The translations under genes and the position numbers were made by a program. A DNA stretch of 50,013 nt from a phage, in the sequence record OZ346186.1; one strand, written 5' to 3'. Every line of letters begins with the position of its first letter. Positions within the stretch are counted from its first letter, which is position 1. The notes beneath the pieces are model-generated. The model had not been told where the DNA came from, ran no database searches, and saw only the letters and a program-made list of their open reading frames with translations. This document shows, in pieces, positions 7,238-50,013 of this stretch.

Positions 7238-7654
7238 ATGGTTGATGAATTTTTCACTGACGCAGAAATCACGCAGCAAATCGTGAAATTAGCTCCACCG
7301 ATGAAGCAGATTGATCCAGATTTAATGGTGGCATGGATTGAGCTTGCAAAGGAATTTGTTTGCAAGAAGCGGTTTAAAGAATCATATCCTAAAGCGGTCG
7401 CTCTTTATACGTTGCACCTTATGACGCTTGACGGAGCGATGAAACAGGAAGGGGAAAGCGTAGATAGTTACTCGCGGCGCGTGGCGTCATTTTCCCTGAC
7501 TGGTGAATTTAGTCAGACATTTGATCGTGTGTCCGGCGATTCAAGCGGAAAAGAGATAAGGCAAACTCCGTGGGGTAAAATGTATGAAACGTTAAATCGC
7601 AAAAAAGGCGGCGGATTTGGTCTTGTTACTGGATTTAGGAGACGTTGCAAATGA
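7238..7654 (+). CDS. head-tail connector/adaptor (putative)
   Basis: 138 aa; SD ggagg; position between capsid and tail genes. Confidence 0.45.
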
Positions 7655-8022
7655 ACTATAACGAGATCGCAAGAATGGCAACCGAAGGAATTAACTTCTT
7701 TAGTGATGGCAACGGTGAGTTTAAGTGCATAACGCAGCGTGGAAGCGTTGAAATCATCGGAGGCGAAGAAGTAGAAAAGCCAGAGATCAGTGTAATGATT
7801 AAGGGTTTAATTCGCTCCCCAAAAGTCCGCGAGATTGACGGCGAGACAATACGAGTAACCGATAAGTTGGGAGTTTTTAACAATAAAGTTGAAATTAAGA
7901 ACGGGTATCATATTGATGTTGATGGTGAATTATATGTTGTAGTTGAAGCAAGACCAATCAGACAAACCAATGTCACTGTTGCTTATCGGCCTATTTTGAG
8001 AAGGATTTCTGTACATGGCTAA
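7651..8022 (+). CDS. head closure / neck protein (putative)
   Basis: 123 aa from ATG 7651 (SD aggaga 8 nt upstream); overlaps previous stop. Confidence 0.45.
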
Positions 8023-29765: not shown

Positions 29766-30171
29766 TAAAGGCGATTATCTGGAGTTTTACGAAAGAGATC
29801 CGACAGATACTCTGAAAGAGGAATCGCACCAGATCGGGGCGTTTCAATGGGTAACTTATGCTCATCCTGAATTACTGGCATGGCATACGAAAAACGAGGG
29901 CGACAAGGGAATCGCCACCGCAATGATGGATCAGCAAGCCGGACTCGTTAAGGGCGTAAGTGATTTTATCATCCTGATTGGATTAAAAGGCCGTTACCCG
30001 TTTGCAGCAATTGAGATGAAACGCGTCAATAAGTCAGGCAAGGGGAAGGCTTCACCAGTCAGCAAGGAGCAAAAAGCCTTCTTGCGCCGTGTGCGTGAGC
30101 TTGGCGGATTCGCTGCCGTAACATACGGATATAAGCAATTCATGATCGCGGTAGAATACATGATGAAATAG
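29752..30171 (+). CDS. VRR-NUC domain nuclease
   Basis: 139 aa; D...E.K nuclease core (DFIILIG...AIEMKR) typical of VRR-NUC, commonly paired with phage helicases. Confidence 0.6.
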   Translation: MAMTDKGDYLEFYERDPTDTLKEESHQIGAFQWVTYAHPELLAWHTKNEGDKGIATAMMDQQAGLVKGVSDFIILIGLKGRYPFAAIEMKRVNKSGKGKASPVSKEQKAFLRRVRELGGFAAVTYGYKQFMIAVEYMMK

Positions 30172-30211
30172 CACTTTTTGTTAAAACAGGCGCGAAGGAT
30201 TGCGCCATAAT
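30167..30211 (+). promoter_or_regulatory. conserved box + hairpin + CATAAT (promoter cassette upstream of dam)
   Basis: box 30167-30187 includes stop TAG of VRR-NUC gene; hairpin ggcgc..gcgcc; -10-like 30206-30211. Confidence 0.5.
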
Positions 30212-30951: not shown

Positions 30952-31209
30952 ATGCAAAAAGAAAGAAGCGTTTATTTAAATGAAACTGGCGAATGGTTGT
31001 TATTTCGCGCTATGGTATGCGATTCACTTGATAAAAACCCTAACGTGAAAAAGATGATTGATTGCGATCCGTGGGAATTTTCAAGCGCATTAGATATGAG
31101 CTTTGAGGAGACAAAAAAACTCCCGCTTGAAAAATGGAACGAGAAAATCAGAAATGACATGCAAGAATTTGTCGATTCGTGGAATTTTCAGCACGGAATA
31201 ATCCACTAA
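30952..31209 (+). CDS. hypothetical protein
   Basis: 85 aa from ATG 30952 (SD ggag); track ORF 30604..31209 is the same frame extended over dam. Confidence 0.55.
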   Translation: MQKERSVYLNETGEWLLFRAMVCDSLDKNPNVKKMIDCDPWEFSSALDMSFEETKKLPLEKWNEKIRNDMQEFVDSWNFQHGIIH

Positions 31210-31252
31210 TAGCACTTTTTGTTAAAACGCCCGACCTTGTGTCGGGCATAAT
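31208..31252 (+). promoter_or_regulatory. conserved box + hairpin + CATAAT
   Basis: box 31208-31228; hairpin gcccgac..gtcgggc; -10-like 31247-31252. Confidence 0.5.
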
Positions 31253-37271: not shown

Positions 37272-37317
37272 GATTATGCCAGGCTTTTACACCTGGCTTT
37301 TAACAAAAAGTGCTATT
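37272..37317 (-). promoter_or_regulatory. conserved box + hairpin + ATAATC (minus strand)
   Basis: box 37297-37317 includes stop TAG of methyltransferase-like gene; hairpin gccagg..cctggc; -10-like 37272-37277. Confidence 0.5.
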
Positions 37318-39322: not shown

Positions 39323-39369
39323 ATAATATACCAATCAGAGGCGCATCGGTTTTAACAAAAAGTGCTATT
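39323..39369 (-). promoter_or_regulatory. conserved box + TATTAT (minus strand)
   Basis: box 39349-39369 abuts stop TAA of 39369..39635; -10-like about 39323-39328. Confidence 0.5.
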
Positions 39370-40200: not shown

Positions 40201-40246
40201 CATTATGCCGAATCCAGTCAGGCACGTTTTAACAAAAAGTGCTATT
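40201..40246 (-). promoter_or_regulatory. conserved box + ATAATG (minus strand), first promoter of leftward early block
   Basis: box 40226-40246; -10-like 40201-40206. Confidence 0.5.
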
Positions 40247-41385: not shown

Positions 41386-41638
41386 GGCATTAATTGGAGT
41401 TTTGATTGCAATTGCTACCCTGACCGGATGCGAAAAGGCATCGGAATCAACGGTTGTCGTAGGCGTGGAGTCAGATTTCAAAGTCGGTCGCCTGTTCACT
41501 GTTGACGGATGCACAGCATACAGATTCTATGATAACGGTCGCGCGATCTATTACACCAATTGCAAAGGCGCAACGGATAGCACGTACAACAGCGGAAAGA
41601 ACGTAATGCACCAGCAAGTCACAACAGATATTAAATAG
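41378..41638 (+). CDS. lipoprotein
   Basis: 86 aa; signal peptide MNKALIGVLIAIATLTGC nearly identical to that of the Cor-like gene; stop TAG embedded in box. Confidence 0.55.
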   Translation: MNKALIGVLIAIATLTGCEKASESTVVVGVESDFKVGRLFTVDGCTAYRFYDNGRAIYYTNCKGATDSTYNSGKNVMHQQVTTDIK

Positions 41639-41678
41639 CACTTTTTGTTAAAACGCCAGGCGCAAAACCTGGCATAAT
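41634..41678 (+). promoter_or_regulatory. conserved box + hairpin + CATAAT
   Basis: box 41634-41654 includes stop TAG; hairpin gccagg..cctggc; -10-like 41673-41678. Confidence 0.5.
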
Positions 41679-42097: not shown

Positions 42098-42141
42098 ATA
42101 GCACTTTTTGTTAAAACTCAAAAACGATAACCAGGCATAAT
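42097..42141 (+). promoter_or_regulatory. conserved box + CATAAT
   Basis: box 42097-42117; -10-like 42136-42141; followed by about 200-nt leader. Confidence 0.5.
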
Positions 42142-47078: not shown

Positions 47079-47366
47079 ATGGCTAAAAGCAATCGTAAAA
47101 TGTTGATTAACGCATTCGAAAAGGCGGCGCTTGAGCGTGGTTGGAATGACTCATTTCACACGGCAAACTGTATCCGCCGTTACGGATTCAAGAATTGTCG
47201 CTCATGGGCGCGTCAAATGGCTTCATGGTATGATCTTGATGCGCATTACCTTGATATGGATTGCGCCCTGGTTGAAATGATTGAGCAGGCCGCATTAGAG
47301 GATCGACCATTAACGCAATCTGATTTTGACGATTTTGTGCGCGATGAAATCTATTACATGAGCTAA
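47079..47366 (+). CDS. hypothetical protein
   Basis: 95 aa from ATG 47079 (SD aaaggagg). Confidence 0.5.
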   Translation: MAKSNRKMLINAFEKAALERGWNDSFHTANCIRRYGFKNCRSWARQMASWYDLDAHYLDMDCALVEMIEQAALEDRPLTQSDFDDFVRDEIYYMS

Positions 47367-47409
47367 TAGCACTTTTTGTTAAAACTTCCGCGAGGGCATT
47401 TGTTAAAGT
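47365..47409 (+). promoter_or_regulatory. conserved box + TAAAGT
   Basis: box 47365-47385 overlaps stop TAA; -10-like 47404-47409. Confidence 0.45.
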
Positions 47410-47914: not shown

Positions 47915-48225
47915 TTTACATTCACTACTACCAGATCGGGACAAACGAGAACAAGAAAGAGCATCGTTTCATTCATGATGATTTTGACAAGGCAAAAGCC
48001 CAGCAACAGGTTTTAGGCGGCGTTATTCAGGCTTTTGAGCCAGTGGAAGACATAGAGCACCGAGAGCATTTGAAAGAGATTGTTGTTGATGAAATTTCAT
48101 CACTAATCGACGACATGACAAATCACGGTCCTGGTTCTCCGTGGGAAGAAGCTGGATCGACGGAGTGGGATTGCGCTAAAGTTGCAACGCTTAACAACTT
48201 TCGTGAGTTGCTCGACGATTTTTAA
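47911..48225 (+). CDS. hypothetical acidic protein
   Basis: 104 aa; SD ggaggagg; followed by terminator. Confidence 0.5.
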   Translation: MIYIHYYQIGTNENKKEHRFIHDDFDKAKAQQQVLGGVIQAFEPVEDIEHREHLKEIVVDEISSLIDDMTNHGPGSPWEEAGSTEWDCAKVATLNNFRELLDDF

Positions 48226-48235
48226 TTAAAATTGA

Positions 48236-48282
48236 ATGCCTCATACAGCGAACAGGACGCATTTTGACGAGGCATTTTTTTA
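48236..48282 (+). terminator. terminator-like hairpin + T7
   Basis: atgcctc..gaggcat + TTTTTTT. Confidence 0.5.
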
Positions 48283-48296
48283 GGTAAGGTGATTCA

Positions 48297-48425
48297 ATGG
48301 GTAGCTACATAAAACCGTCGCAATGGTGCGCACAGAAGCAAGAGGAAGCATTAGAGCGCGGCGATACTGAAACAGCAATGCACTATTTCGAGATGTACAA
48401 CTTGTGGAAGGGTAGAGGTCTGTAA
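48297..48425 (+). CDS. hypothetical 42-aa protein
   Basis: hand-translated; SD aaggtga. Confidence 0.35.
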   Translation: MGSYIKPSQWCAQKQEEALERGDTETAMHYFEMYNLWKGRGL

Positions 48426-48655
48426 TGTTTGGAATGAGCGAGGCACAATTCAACGCTGCAAAACGCCAGGCTAAGAAGTGCGGCGAGGCAATGAAGGCGG
48501 ATGTTGAAAAGCGCGGAAAGTATGTTGATGAAGTTATGAAGGGAATTATTGCCGAACATTATCAGCCAGTTGCGCCAATGCTGACAATTACCCAATTCAT
48601 CTGGTTATGTGGTTATCTTCGTGGGCGATGGGGAAACGCGTTTGACCGCGAATGA
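48425..48655 (+). CDS. hypothetical protein
   Basis: 76 aa; ATG overlaps upstream stop. Confidence 0.5.
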   Translation: MFGMSEAQFNAAKRQAKKCGEAMKADVEKRGKYVDEVMKGIIAEHYQPVAPMLTITQFIWLCGYLRGRWGNAFDRE

Positions 48656-48684
48656 TTGACAACGATTTCCTGATTGGTTAACAT
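48656..48684 (+). promoter_or_regulatory. sigma70-like promoter TTGACA-17-TAACAT
   Basis: hexamers at 48656-48661 and 48679-48684; followed by structured leader and terminator-like hairpin. Confidence 0.45.
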
Positions 48685-48747
48685 CTTCGGTGTTTACATA
48701 AGAGCGGCGTTAGTGCCGAACGGGTGGCGCGGTTGCCACGCAACAAC

Positions 48748-48790
48748 GGCGATATGCAGGTTTTTACCGTAAGACGTATCGCCTTTTTTA
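48748..48790 (+). terminator. terminator/attenuator-like hairpin in leader of 48802 gene
   Basis: ggcgata..tatcgcc + TTTTTT, about 60 nt downstream of sigma70-like promoter. Confidence 0.45.
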
Positions 48791-48801
48791 TAGGTGAATA
48801 T

Positions 48802-49035
48802 ATGGAAAAGTACAAATTAACTTTCATGTTTAATGGCATGGTGATGAATCCCCTAAATGGTTACGCTTGCAATAGCTTTTCTGTTACCGTGAATGAGGAT
48901 GAGATTGATGATGATGGCAAATTCATTCGAATTGGTGAATACTTGTACCCAGTTCACAATATCAATTGCATCAAACGCGAGATCGTAAAAGATGAAGTAC
49001 AAGGTAAGATTGACGATCAGGCGAATGGGGCGTAA
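48802..49035 (+). CDS. hypothetical protein
   Basis: 77 aa from ATG 48802 (SD aggtga); longer track ORF from 48724 would read through a terminator-like hairpin. Confidence 0.45.
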   Translation: MEKYKLTFMFNGMVMNPLNGYACNSFSVTVNEDEIDDDGKFIRIGEYLYPVHNINCIKREIVKDEVQGKIDDQANGA

Positions 49036-49173
49036 TTGCTCGTCATGCAGACAAAGTTTTGAATGTGAGGTTGAAGCTCGCGGAGAGCTTGAGGCAGCAG
49101 CAAGAGCAAAAGAGTTGTCCGGCGCTAATCAACACACTCACCAGTTTTCAATAGATCTTGTAAGGAAAATGTC

Positions 49174-49413
49174 ATGAGTTCTGTAATTATTTGTTTGGTT
49201 GCTTTAATCATTGGTGTTCTAATCGGCTTTGTTGCTGTATCTTTCGTGGTGGCTGTTGGTGTTCGCTATAAGTCAAAAAAAGGTGAATTTGCTTTAGCGT
49301 TTTGGGATGAAGATCAGAAAGTTTGGCAGGTTCGCGGTCACTATTTATCAATCGGTGGCAAGATTCACAGCACTATGAAAACAAATCCAGAAAAGGTAAA
49401 ATACAAGTATTGA
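49174..49413 (+). CDS. small membrane protein (N-terminal TMD)
   Basis: 79 aa; hydrophobic N-terminus; SD aagga. Confidence 0.5.
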   Translation: MSSVIICLVALIIGVLIGFVAVSFVVAVGVRYKSKKGEFALAFWDEDQKVWQVRGHYLSIGGKIHSTMKTNPEKVKYKY

Positions 49414-49420
49414 CAAACTA

Positions 49421-49443
49421 CCCGCCAAATGGCGGGTTTTTTA
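49421..49443 (+). terminator. rho-independent terminator before terS
   Basis: cccgcc aaat ggcggg + TTTTTT. Confidence 0.65.
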
Positions 49444-49459
49444 TTGTCTGCAATTTGTC

Positions 49460-49465
49460 TATAAT
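49460..49465 (+). promoter_or_regulatory. TATAAT -10 element upstream of terS without obvious -35 (possible activator-dependent late promoter)
   Basis: TATAAT 27 nt upstream of terS ATG, just after terminator. Confidence 0.3.
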
Positions 49466-49492
49466 GAGGCTTTGTTATAAGGAGGGCGCATT

Positions 49493-50013
49493 ATGGCTAA
49501 AAACGTTGAGCCAGCAGTAAAGGCTTGCAATTTTAAAAAACTATATAATAAACAATATGGCGATATTGCAAAAATGACAAAGGCGCACAAGTACACGCCG
49601 GAACAGGTATTTGATCTGGCTGTACGTTACTTTACGTGGGCTGAGGAAAACCATATACAGGCTGCGGAAACGGCATCCTTTCAAGGTGATGTATACGAAA
49701 GCAAGATTCACAAGCCGCGCGTGTTCACCTTAAATGGATTCCGCTTATTCGCTGGCCTTTCTGCTTCCGTGCTTGAAAAATGGCGACGCGAGCCAGGATT
49801 CAGCGATGTTATGGACTTTATCGACGGCGTTGTTTACGAGCAAAAATTCCAGCTTGCTGCAAACAATATTGTTAACGCCGGATTTATTGGTAAAGAGATC
49901 GGCATTGAAAAGCCAGCCACCGTTACCATTGAGAATAACACAAGCGCCAGCGTTGACGCTGTAACGGCGGAGGAGGTCAAAGAGGCGGTAATTGACATTT
50001 TGGAGAAGATATA
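49493..50013 (+). CDS. terS: terminase small subunit (3'-truncated by window end)
   Basis: ORF from ATG 49493 (SD aaggaggg) open to window end; last 2 nt TA plus window base 1 (A) would form TAA overlapping the terL ATG. Confidence 0.6.
   Translation, partial: MAKNVEPAVKACNFKKLYNKQYGDIAKMTKAHKYTPEQVFDLAVRYFTWAEENHIQAAETASFQGDVYESKIHKPRVFTLNGFRLFAGLSASVLEKWRREPGFSDVMDFIDGVVYEQKFQLAANNIVNAGFIGKEIGIEKPATVTIENNTSASVDAVTAEEVKEAVIDILEKI

Follow-up and report, generated by a model that had tools for sequence, protein, structure and literature searches.

A conserved, structured leader RNA with its own predicted promoter precedes the small terminase gene in phages of the T1 family

Results

Genomic setting of the leader

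The window analysed here (the whole stretch of 50,013 nt in record OZ346186.1) is, judged from its sequence, the nearly complete genome of a T1-like virulent siphophage, and megablast assigns it to the Drexlerviridae, subfamily Tempevirinae, genus Hanrivervirus. The interval 48200-49500 matched 74 phage records in the same search, with the best matches, all Hanrivervirus, at 97% identity (Shigella phage ESh4 and Escherichia phages Henu8 and haarsle). The element described below occupies a 146-nt gap between a 76-aa gene on its left (48425-48655), which is a homologue of T1 gene 59 (T1p59), and a 77-aa ORF on its right (ATG 48802). The small terminase gene (ATG 49494) begins ~700 bp further downstream. 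Homologues of the T1p59-type gene were found in 835 phage records across the Drexlerviridae. The 76-aa protein itself had no Pfam or PDB match, a word-index search returned only 3 near-identical proteins, and its AF2 single-sequence model (pLDDT 62) was left out of the fold search. The small proteins neighbouring the leader gave no informative Pfam, PHROG or PDB match, and no RNA-binding domain could be identified in them. The features of the locus, in order along the strand, are as follows.

48656-48661, + strand: -35 hexamer TTGACA, starting right after the stop codon of the 76-aa gene
48670-48677, + strand: conserved octamer CTGATTGG in the promoter spacer; CTGAYYGG or a close variant in most lineages
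48679-48684, + strand: -10 hexamer TAACAT, 17-nt spacer from the -35 hexamer; TAnnnT in the family
48691-48704, + strand: predicted RNA 5' end, conserved 14-nt motif (U/C)GUnnACAnAAGAG, unpaired in the minimum free energy (MFE) and consensus folds
48705-48718, + strand: hairpin H1, CGGC/GCCG with loop GUUAGU; all 4 pairs changed on both sides in the family, loop varying freely
48719-48741, + strand: linker AACG and hairpin H2, GUGGC/GCCAC with loop GCGGUU; 4 of 6 pairs compensatory, loop conserved
48742-48747, + strand: unpaired linker AACAAC; invariant in Hanriver-, Warwick- and Henuseptimavirus-type sequences, not conserved in T1 or TLS
48748-48783, + strand: hairpin H3, 9-bp basal stem GGCGAUAUG/CGUAUCGCC, the terminator stem in this phage; 6 of 9 basal pairs compensatory, 99% paired
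48784-48789, + strand: U6 tract completing the intrinsic terminator; T-run of 5-7 in close relatives, degenerate or absent in other genera
48793-49035, + strand: Shine-Dalgarno sequence AGGTG (48793-97) and 77-aa ORF (ATG 48802), an accessory gene missing from some Hanriverviruses
48992-49413, + strand: two small conserved genes, of 61 aa (phrog_2919) and 79 aa (DUF7299, with a hydrophobic N-terminal stretch)
49420-49443, + strand: strong intrinsic terminator (7 bp, 6 of them G-C pairs, T6; -13.8 kcal/mol), closing the small-gene unit just ahead of the small terminase gene

No promoter for the 77-aa ORF is evident within the 12 nt that separate the U-tract from its ATG. In several genera the gene directly 3' of the leader opens with M-x-W/Y-K-V, as the 61-aa protein does. 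A terminator is annotated at the place equivalent to 49420-49443 in T1, Sazh and G29-2, and the T1 record as a whole carries 11 annotated terminators. Within window positions 1-20 kb, 33 terminator-like sites were counted on both strands against 18.3 ± 3.6 expected, and the + strand carries at least 7 of the strongest of them. A perfect TATAAT stands at 49460-49465, just upstream of the small terminase gene. Neither a tRNA nor a tmRNA gene was found in the window.

Promoter and predicted transcript start

The first-pass annotation of this DNA had read TTGACA-17-TAACAT at 48656-48684 as a sigma70-like promoter. The two hexamers are present as claimed, matching the consensus at 10 of 12 positions, and both they and their spacing are kept in relatives. 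The relatives were compared in a set of 65 distinct sequences drawn from 101 loci, in which TAnnnT lies 12-7 nt upstream of the conserved 5' motif and TTGAC a further 17-18 nt upstream; in ~53 of the 65, TTGAC stands at a constant distance from the RNA start. Variants of the -10 hexamer include TAACAT, TAGCAT, TAACCT, TATCGT and TAGATT, among others, so that A2 and T6 are kept while the middle drifts. The 6-nt discriminator between the -10 hexamer and the 5' motif varies freely and the spacer varies in part. Within the spacer, the octamer takes the form CTGAGYGG in T1-like phages and is not kept in CS01. As a separate observation, CTGATTGG is over-represented across the whole genome as well.

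Conservation sets in at the 7th base after the -10 hexamer in all lineages, and this base coincides with the predicted +1. Since conservation of (C/U)GUnnACAnAAGAG begins where a sigma70 RNA polymerase should initiate, the comparison supports a transcription start near 48691, as originally proposed from the window alone, and we infer a start at 48691/48692. The 5' motif mixes invariant with free positions (CGUnnACRnAnGAG). Single-sequence statistics show no enrichment of promoter-like sites in the region (5 found, 7.9 expected from shuffles). The 2024 reannotation of phage TLS gives three sigma70 promoters, and the leader promoter is not among them. Neither an RNA polymerase nor a sigma factor is encoded by T1-like phages (PMC11447400).

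Predicted structure of the leader RNA

From this promoter, a structured, non-coding RNA of ~95 nt is predicted (93-99 nt). In the ViennaRNA fold of the 100-nt RNA (-32.5 kcal/mol), an unpaired 5' end of 14 nt is followed by three consecutive hairpins, the last of which, H3, reaches -15.0 kcal/mol alone. Two of these hairpins had been picked out in the first reading and both are there: the H2 arms are GTGGC/GCCAC in the DNA (48724-28 / 48735-39), and the H3 arms are GGCGATATG/CGTATCGCC (48748-56 / 48775-83), followed by T6 at 48784-89. The run of T residues ends 12 nt before ATG 48802, again as described; it had also been said to overlap the Shine-Dalgarno sequence, which it only abuts. The base of the H3 stem is GGCG/CGCC, and its loop of 17 nt includes a 3-bp sub-helix, with CCGUAA at 48767-48772 on the 3' side of the internal loop. 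Because this loop is longer than 8 nt, a consensus terminator scan misses H3, and the long loop may lower the efficiency of the terminator.

No alternative antiterminator pairing was seen in the leader: the MFE, centroid and consensus folds agree, and by inspection no conserved segment is complementary to either arm of the terminator. The leader therefore does not qualify as a classical attenuator, in which alternative structures exclude one another. Of the two options initially put forward, a short RNA or a transcription-attenuation leader, both are still viable in general terms, and what falls away is this classical form of the second. Taken by itself, the window sequence is weak evidence for the element, with a fold z-score of -1.9 over 117 nt and 10 of 200 shuffles folding as well; the comparison with relatives is decisive.

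Covariation and strand

A blastn search with 261 nt around the gap retrieved 133 records, with identities as low as 75%. When 18 phages were aligned, conservation between the genes was no lower than in the coding sequence on either side, and compensatory changes appeared in each hairpin. RNAalifold, applied to 17 distinct sequences, returned 20 pairs, of which 4 carried double changes and practically none was broken. We built a seed alignment and two covariance models, R1 for the full length and R2 for the core (5' motif, H1 and H2), the latter from 28 diverse sequences. When 32 distinct full-length sequences were placed on R1, 98.4% of the cells were paired, against 27-55% with slid partners, and 14 of the 20 pairs had changed on both sides. 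The core alignment gave 91.8% against 20-42%, with 8 of 10 pairs changed on both sides, and none of 500 shuffles of the core reached either the observed percentage paired or the observed covariation score. The family consensus of the H2 loop is GCGAUA. H1 is rebuilt from unlike sequences from genus to genus (CGGC/GCCG, GCGC/GCGC, GCUC/GAGC, GUGU/ACAC and GCCC/GGGU).

These alignments also point to the strand. One pair of H3 alternates between U.G and C-G, and there are several further G-U pairs, which on the opposite strand would give A.C. The pairs fit the + strand only, and selection therefore acts on a + strand RNA rather than on a DNA cruciform or a protein-binding palindrome. Conservation and covariation together lend strong support to the ~95-nt structured RNA with an intrinsic terminator that the first-pass annotation had suggested.

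Distribution and lineage variation

We sampled the syntenic region in ten further GenBank genera and in 80 IMG/VR contigs, and R1 matched in the equivalent gap in 7 of the ten genera and in 40 of the contigs. With R2, a single copy was detected in the window (E = 6.5e-13; next best E ~2) and a single one in phage T1, at 7623-7676 between T1 genes 58 and 57 (E = 2.7e-11). A second copy, such as the putL/putR or nutL/nutR pairs would lead one to look for, was found in neither the window nor T1, even with filters off. In most genera sampled, T1 included, each genome has a single 5' core at a constant place, flanked by the T1p59/58 homologue and the genes that come before the small terminase; two genera have divergent forms.

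The 3' part of the leader varies more between lineages. The last hairpin carries a CCGUAA-type motif in most sampled genera (mostly CCGUAA itself, with some single-base variants), on a stem that covaries; no such motif turned up in Webervirus, and none within a hairpin in CS01. In a motif search, the Webervirus (Klebsiella) version was reduced to the 5' motif and H1, after which comes a short hairpin resembling a terminator. Conversely, Sauletekiovirus AAS23 and the IMG/VR contig L142 keep the CCGUAA hairpin and have a different 5' domain. A U-tract after the last hairpin occurs only in Hanriver-, Warwick- and Henuseptimavirus and in some unclassified contigs, ranging in quality from U7 to interrupted runs. 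In T1, SRT8 and the TLS group, the last hairpin is followed by CAAUUCA-AGGAG-AUG without a U-run, and in Braunvirinae and some contigs one to five tRNA genes lie directly 3' of the leader. In A16a, JakobBernoulli and BEK1-23, homology to the window stops at 48788, right after the T-run; these three are without the 77-aa ORF, and their next gene opens with MKWKV like the 61-aa protein. Homology that ends at this very point indicates that the RNA is a module with a sharp 3' boundary.

The conserved unit is a family-wide structured leader RNA rather than a promoter-terminator pair. By sequence comparison, the element is conserved from T1 to Cronobacter phages and shortened in Klebsiella phages. 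A scan of bacteria and archaea with a 20-base gapped pattern, using one genome from each of 185,579 species, gave 2 matches, both of which failed the covariance model, and by that scan the element looks phage-specific. Scanning IMG/VR with TAAGACGTANCGCCT produced 70 loci, of which only 9 were real.

Comparison with known RNA elements

No Rfam family matched the window at the gathering score, and nothing in the region scored better than E = 4; on 17 loci of the family, Rfam detected tRNAs only. A full-text literature search found no earlier description of the leader RNA. Several specific identities were tried and rejected. A put homologue was sought by running R2 over the whole HK022 genome with filters off, where the best E-value was 3.3, and no R2 match fell in the HK022 stretch that, lying ~270 nt downstream of PR, is presumed to be putR. 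The lambda boxA octamer CGCUCUUA does not occur on the transcript; only its reverse complement TAAGAGCG does (48699-48706), that is, on the wrong strand. By inspection, no -10-like pause element (TAnnnT) is conserved in the initial transcribed region, represented by the motif CGUnnACAnAAGAG. The 5' motif is complementary in the window to the CCGUAA loop or the AACG linker, but the variable positions do not covary. Neither an RfaH ops-like element in H1 nor an 11-nt tetraloop receptor in the internal loop of H3 is conserved across the family. Targets of the 5' 16 nt within the phage genome came out as noise-level duplexes only, the best at ~-15 kcal/mol and interrupted.

Discussion

Cis control of read-through as the favoured reading

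The reading that we favour, at a probability of roughly 0.4, is that the leader is a cis-acting RNA controlling read-through of a terminator, with the short RNA as a by-product. The conserved sigma70 promoter at 48656-48684 would start an RNA at 48691/48692, and most transcripts would stop at 48784-48790 to leave the ~95-nt RNA. The fraction that reads through would then provide most or all of the mRNA for the three small genes at 48802-49413, which would depend on it because no promoter of their own is evident. The small-gene unit would end at the strong terminator at 49420, before the terminase genes. The leader would act in cis on transcription elongation: its conserved unpaired motifs (5' motif, H2 loop and CCGUAA) would serve as binding sites for RNA polymerase itself or for some factor from the phage or the host, and this binding would set the share of polymerases passing the leader's own terminator and possibly later ones. 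The terminated short RNA would be a by-product with a possible second role.

Several features of the family weigh towards a role in elongation rather than towards a base-pairing sRNA. Even phages that share a host differ at the free positions interrupting the 5' motif, and such an alternation of fixed and free positions suits recognition by a protein or by polymerase better than it suits a base-pairing seed. In several genera tRNA genes take the place of ORFs after the leader, so its conserved function must act on transcription or processing and not on translation, and any function proposed for it must make sense with tRNA genes downstream. The leader is also present in a single copy, fixed at the entrance of the packaging and structural block, and this late block is rich in co-directional terminators in a family without a polymerase or sigma factor of its own. 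On the other side of the balance, no alternative antiterminator pairing was seen, and no candidate factor stands out among the neighbouring proteins examined. No relation to put was found, the RNA strand carries no boxA, a -10-like pause element is missing too, and a conserved unpaired 5' end with a U-tailed terminator is a layout equally typical of trans-acting sRNAs. Because a perfect TATAAT precedes the small terminase gene, the late operon need not depend on the leader.

Relation to lambdoid late promoters, put, nut and Hfq-type sRNAs

One arrangement close in outline is the lambdoid pR'-qut-tR' unit with its '6S' RNA (StxS in Stx phages). As in that unit, a sigma70 promoter directly follows the preceding gene, a terminator ~100-200 nt downstream yields a short RNA, and the whole stands ahead of late genes (the terminase gene at 49494 here), whose expression needs read-through in the lambdoid case and would do so for the genes downstream of the leader. 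A conserved sequence in the promoter spacer is common to both, at the place where Q binds in lambda. In contrast to the lambdoid unit, a Q homologue is lacking here, the 76-aa protein encoded upstream matches no family, and the initial transcribed region has no -10-like pause element. The leader is, moreover, a covarying multi-hairpin RNA throughout a family of virulent phages, and its terminator is absent in many members.

The putL and putR sites of HK022 are likewise structured RNAs encoded in cis within a few bases of +1, with terminators to follow (48784 and 49420 in the window), in a phage without a dedicated polymerase, and they too have conserved unpaired nucleotides that are potential RNA polymerase contacts. 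They differ from the leader in both sequence and structure, with two long bulged stems (~70 nt) rather than three short hairpins (PMC9378689). The leader is also present in one copy rather than two, and one of its hairpins is itself the terminator. With the lambda nut site (boxA and boxB) and N, the leader shares a short GC-rich hairpin with a conserved purine-rich loop (CCGUAA here), close to the promoter and with terminators downstream. Unlike nut, it shows the boxA octamer only as the reverse complement and is found at one site per genome, and no N-like arginine-rich protein was identified among the neighbouring small proteins, with an AF2 model of low confidence for the 76-aa one. Hfq-type sRNAs, including DicF and StxS, resemble the leader in size (~95 nt), in having their own promoter and an unpaired conserved 5' end, and, in this genus, in a U-tailed terminator. 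The leader departs from them in its discontinuous 'seed', in a U-tail that is missing from many members, in the lack of a target found in the phage genome, and in the genes or tRNAs that lie within 12 nt of it and would depend on read-through.

Alternative explanations

These likenesses translate into other readings of the same element. The leader may be a stand-alone trans-acting sRNA, with the 14-nt 5' end as a seed for host or phage mRNAs, hairpins and U-tailed terminator conferring stability and binding to Hfq or ProQ, and read-through incidental; we regard this as a serious rival, if a somewhat unlikely one. The window phage has every part of such an RNA, namely its own promoter, an unpaired and conserved 5' terminus from +1, hairpins and a terminator with U6, and the AACAAC linker resembles an ARN-type Hfq site. 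Where the U-tract is missing, as in T1, TLS and others, which speaks against an sRNA, the RNA would be freed by processing, either by RNase E in the A/U-rich AUUCA that follows the last hairpin or, ahead of a tRNA, by RNase P. A discrete 3' end after the CCGUAA hairpin is in fact conceivable in every lineage, at a U-tract, an A/U-rich linker or a tRNA 5' end. A precedent exists in Stx phages, whose short, early-terminated transcript downstream of the late promoter PR' is a regulatory sRNA (PMC7547250); as that transcript shows, the roles of cis leader and sRNA can coexist. Less easily accommodated is the 5' motif, which is interrupted by free positions even among E. coli phages (T1, TLS and Hanrivervirus) and would be unusual for a seed with a fixed target, and the phage's own genome offers no convincing complementary site. 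A processive antitermination element with an unrelated fold, either put-like (RNA alone) or nut-like (RNA with a factor), seems to us unlikely. Here the nascent leader would stay on RNA polymerase and make it resistant to the terminator within the leader, to that preceding the terminase gene and to some ten more in the 20-kb late operon. This reading extends the favoured one to a stronger effect over a long range. Its position immediately after the promoter, as for putL (PMC9378689), fits this well, as do its standing as the sole copy in the genome at the head of the packaging and structural genes, the many co-directional terminators downstream and the lack of a known phage RNA polymerase or sigma factor in the family. 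The tRNA clusters that follow the leader in some genera, being untranslated and exposed to Rho, fit as well. The covariance model, however, finds nothing in HK022, the presumed putR stretch included, and three short hairpins are unlike the two long bulged stems of put (PMC9378689). That boxA CGCUCUUA is present only as its reverse complement also tells against it, and the TATAAT before the terminase gene, together with the T1 'transcripton' model, suggests internal late promoters.

Two further groups of explanations stand lower. The RNA could serve as a module for processing or stability of an mRNA or tRNA precursor, as an autoregulatory site for the small downstream proteins, or as a decoy for a host protein, any of which we find distinctly improbable. 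Conserved loops on variable stems are typical of protein-binding RNAs, the cargo genes for phrog_2919 and DUF7299 are conserved together with the leader, and the last hairpin directly abuts a Shine-Dalgarno sequence or a tRNA 5' end. A 14-nt unpaired 5' end is nevertheless the opposite of a stabilising 5' hairpin, the neighbouring proteins have no identifiable RNA-binding domain, and these roles leave the U-tract variants unexplained. Highly improbable, finally, is that no RNA is involved and that the conserved stretch is a DNA site (pac, origin or operator) or encodes a protein N-terminus, by extension from GTG 48724 or as a 32-aa ORF at 48674-48772. The stretch does lie 700 bp upstream of the small terminase gene, the ORFs 48674-48772 and 48724-49035 are open in the window, and their equivalents are annotated in ESh4, SFP17, G29-2, herni and JakobBernoulli. 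Against a DNA site stand the compensatory helices and the U.G pairs, which would be A.C on the other strand; against pac in particular, the T1 terminal repeat, and hence pac, is at coordinate 1, 7.6 kb from the element. As to a protein, differences of 1-2 bases in the length of T-run and loop among close relatives shift the frame (Henu8 +1, 2019SD1 -2), which rules out both the GTG 48724 extension and the 32-aa ORF, and most records start the downstream gene at ATG.

Significance for the T1 family

T1 belongs to the classical set of seven T phages, and the Drexlerviridae comprise many hundreds of sequenced genomes. Comparative evidence indicates that a structured RNA family, undescribed in the literature and the Rfam collection that we searched, is conserved across this phage family. 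The kind of element is already known, as a promoter-proximal phage leader or a short RNA; its fold and motifs are new. The alignment and models supply a new RNA family for databases such as Rfam, and the element corrects public annotations in which protein starts or small ORFs have been placed over the RNA. It is doubtful that the leader represents a new class of cis-acting processive antitermination RNA, put-like with an unrelated fold and perhaps in need of a small phage protein. If that were true, it would explain how late genes are expressed past some ten terminators of the late operon without a polymerase or sigma factor of the phage's own. A single, strongly covarying, promoter-proximal RNA at the entrance to the packaging and structural genes offers a testable handle on the regulation of transcription in the T1 family.

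Gene start and cargo downstream of the leader

In several GenBank records (ESh4, SFP17, G29-2, herni and JakobBernoulli), either a small ORF or a GTG start placed too far upstream has been drawn over the leader, the ~95-nt structured RNA that precedes the 77-aa ORF. The positions concerned, in the window and in loci of related phages (L-numbers), are as follows.

Window: 48674-48772 and 48724-48801
L001: 2033
L002: 974-1072
L003: 525
L007: 532
L010: 484-591

Indels across the RNA that shift the frame, together with the pattern of covariation, point to mis-annotation in these cases; the true gene start is the ATG equivalent to 48802.

In A16a (labelled a Campylobacter phage), JakobBernoulli and BEK1-23 (L009-L011, at ~589), similarity to the window extends precisely as far as the last base of the T-run (48788/48789), and the 77-aa ORF is missing. 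The leader terminator thus marks a boundary of recombination, and the 77-aa gene has the look of an accessory insertion. Some 20 near-identical records carry the label "Campylobacter phage", although they are typical coliphage-like Hanriverviruses. Directly after the CCGUAA hairpin, the last hairpin of the leader, Braunvirinae and some IMG/VR contigs have between one and five tRNA genes instead of the small ORFs.

L095: 2015-2092, tRNA gene(s)
L142: 1907-2551, tRNA gene(s)
L160: 2102-2186, tRNA gene(s)
L177: 2119-2301, tRNA gene(s)

The interval from the leader to the pre-terminase terminator behaves like a slot for cargo.

Terminators and promoters in the window

A second terminator-like hairpin at 48236-48296 (AATGCCTC ... 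GAGGCATT, with a 26-nt loop, then T7) lies directly upstream of a Shine-Dalgarno sequence and the ATG at 48297, and shares with the leader the order of terminator, then ribosome-binding site. Given this layout at both places, polymerase seems to read through intrinsic terminators as a matter of course in this phage. In the stretch 49420-49493, ahead of the small terminase gene, a perfect TATAAT (49460-49465) directly follows the strong terminator at 49420; it has no recognisable -35 and is a possible factor-dependent late promoter.

The octamer CTGAYYGG, which occupies 48670-48677 in the leader promoter spacer, occurs 31 times in the whole window (~20 on the plus strand, 11 on the minus), in excess of the 3.75 +/- 2.2 expected from dinucleotide shuffles (maximum 10).

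Example sites: 767, 4155, 5723, 14475, 28311, 39338 (minus strand) and 48670

CTGATTGG by itself accounts for 15 copies and ranks among the commonest 8-mers in the window. Density is comparable in other T1-family loci (0.57 per kb over 257 kb), where many copies are the leader-promoter one. In about half of its copies the octamer reads in frame as Leu-Ile/Thr-Gly codons, so coding may account for some of the excess; copies outside this class include ones in promoter spacers. The octamer is not Chi.

The window has 22 copies, with up to three mismatches, of a 19-21-nt repeat, ATAGCACnnnTTGnTAAAA, against 2.8 expected; this repeat has been reported in phage TLS (PMC11447400). Examples from its roughly 20 sites are given below.

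Plus strand: 30168-30186, 31209-31227, 41635-41653, 42098-42116, 47366-47384
Minus strand: 37298-37316, 39350-39368, 40227-40245

The early half of the genome contains most of these copies, and hardly any are found on the plus strand of the late region. Because the repeat is followed at 39338 and 40221 by CTGAYYGG and then a -10-like hexamer, the arrangement suggests that ATAGCACnnnTTGnTAAAA is the -35/UP portion of the main early promoter class.
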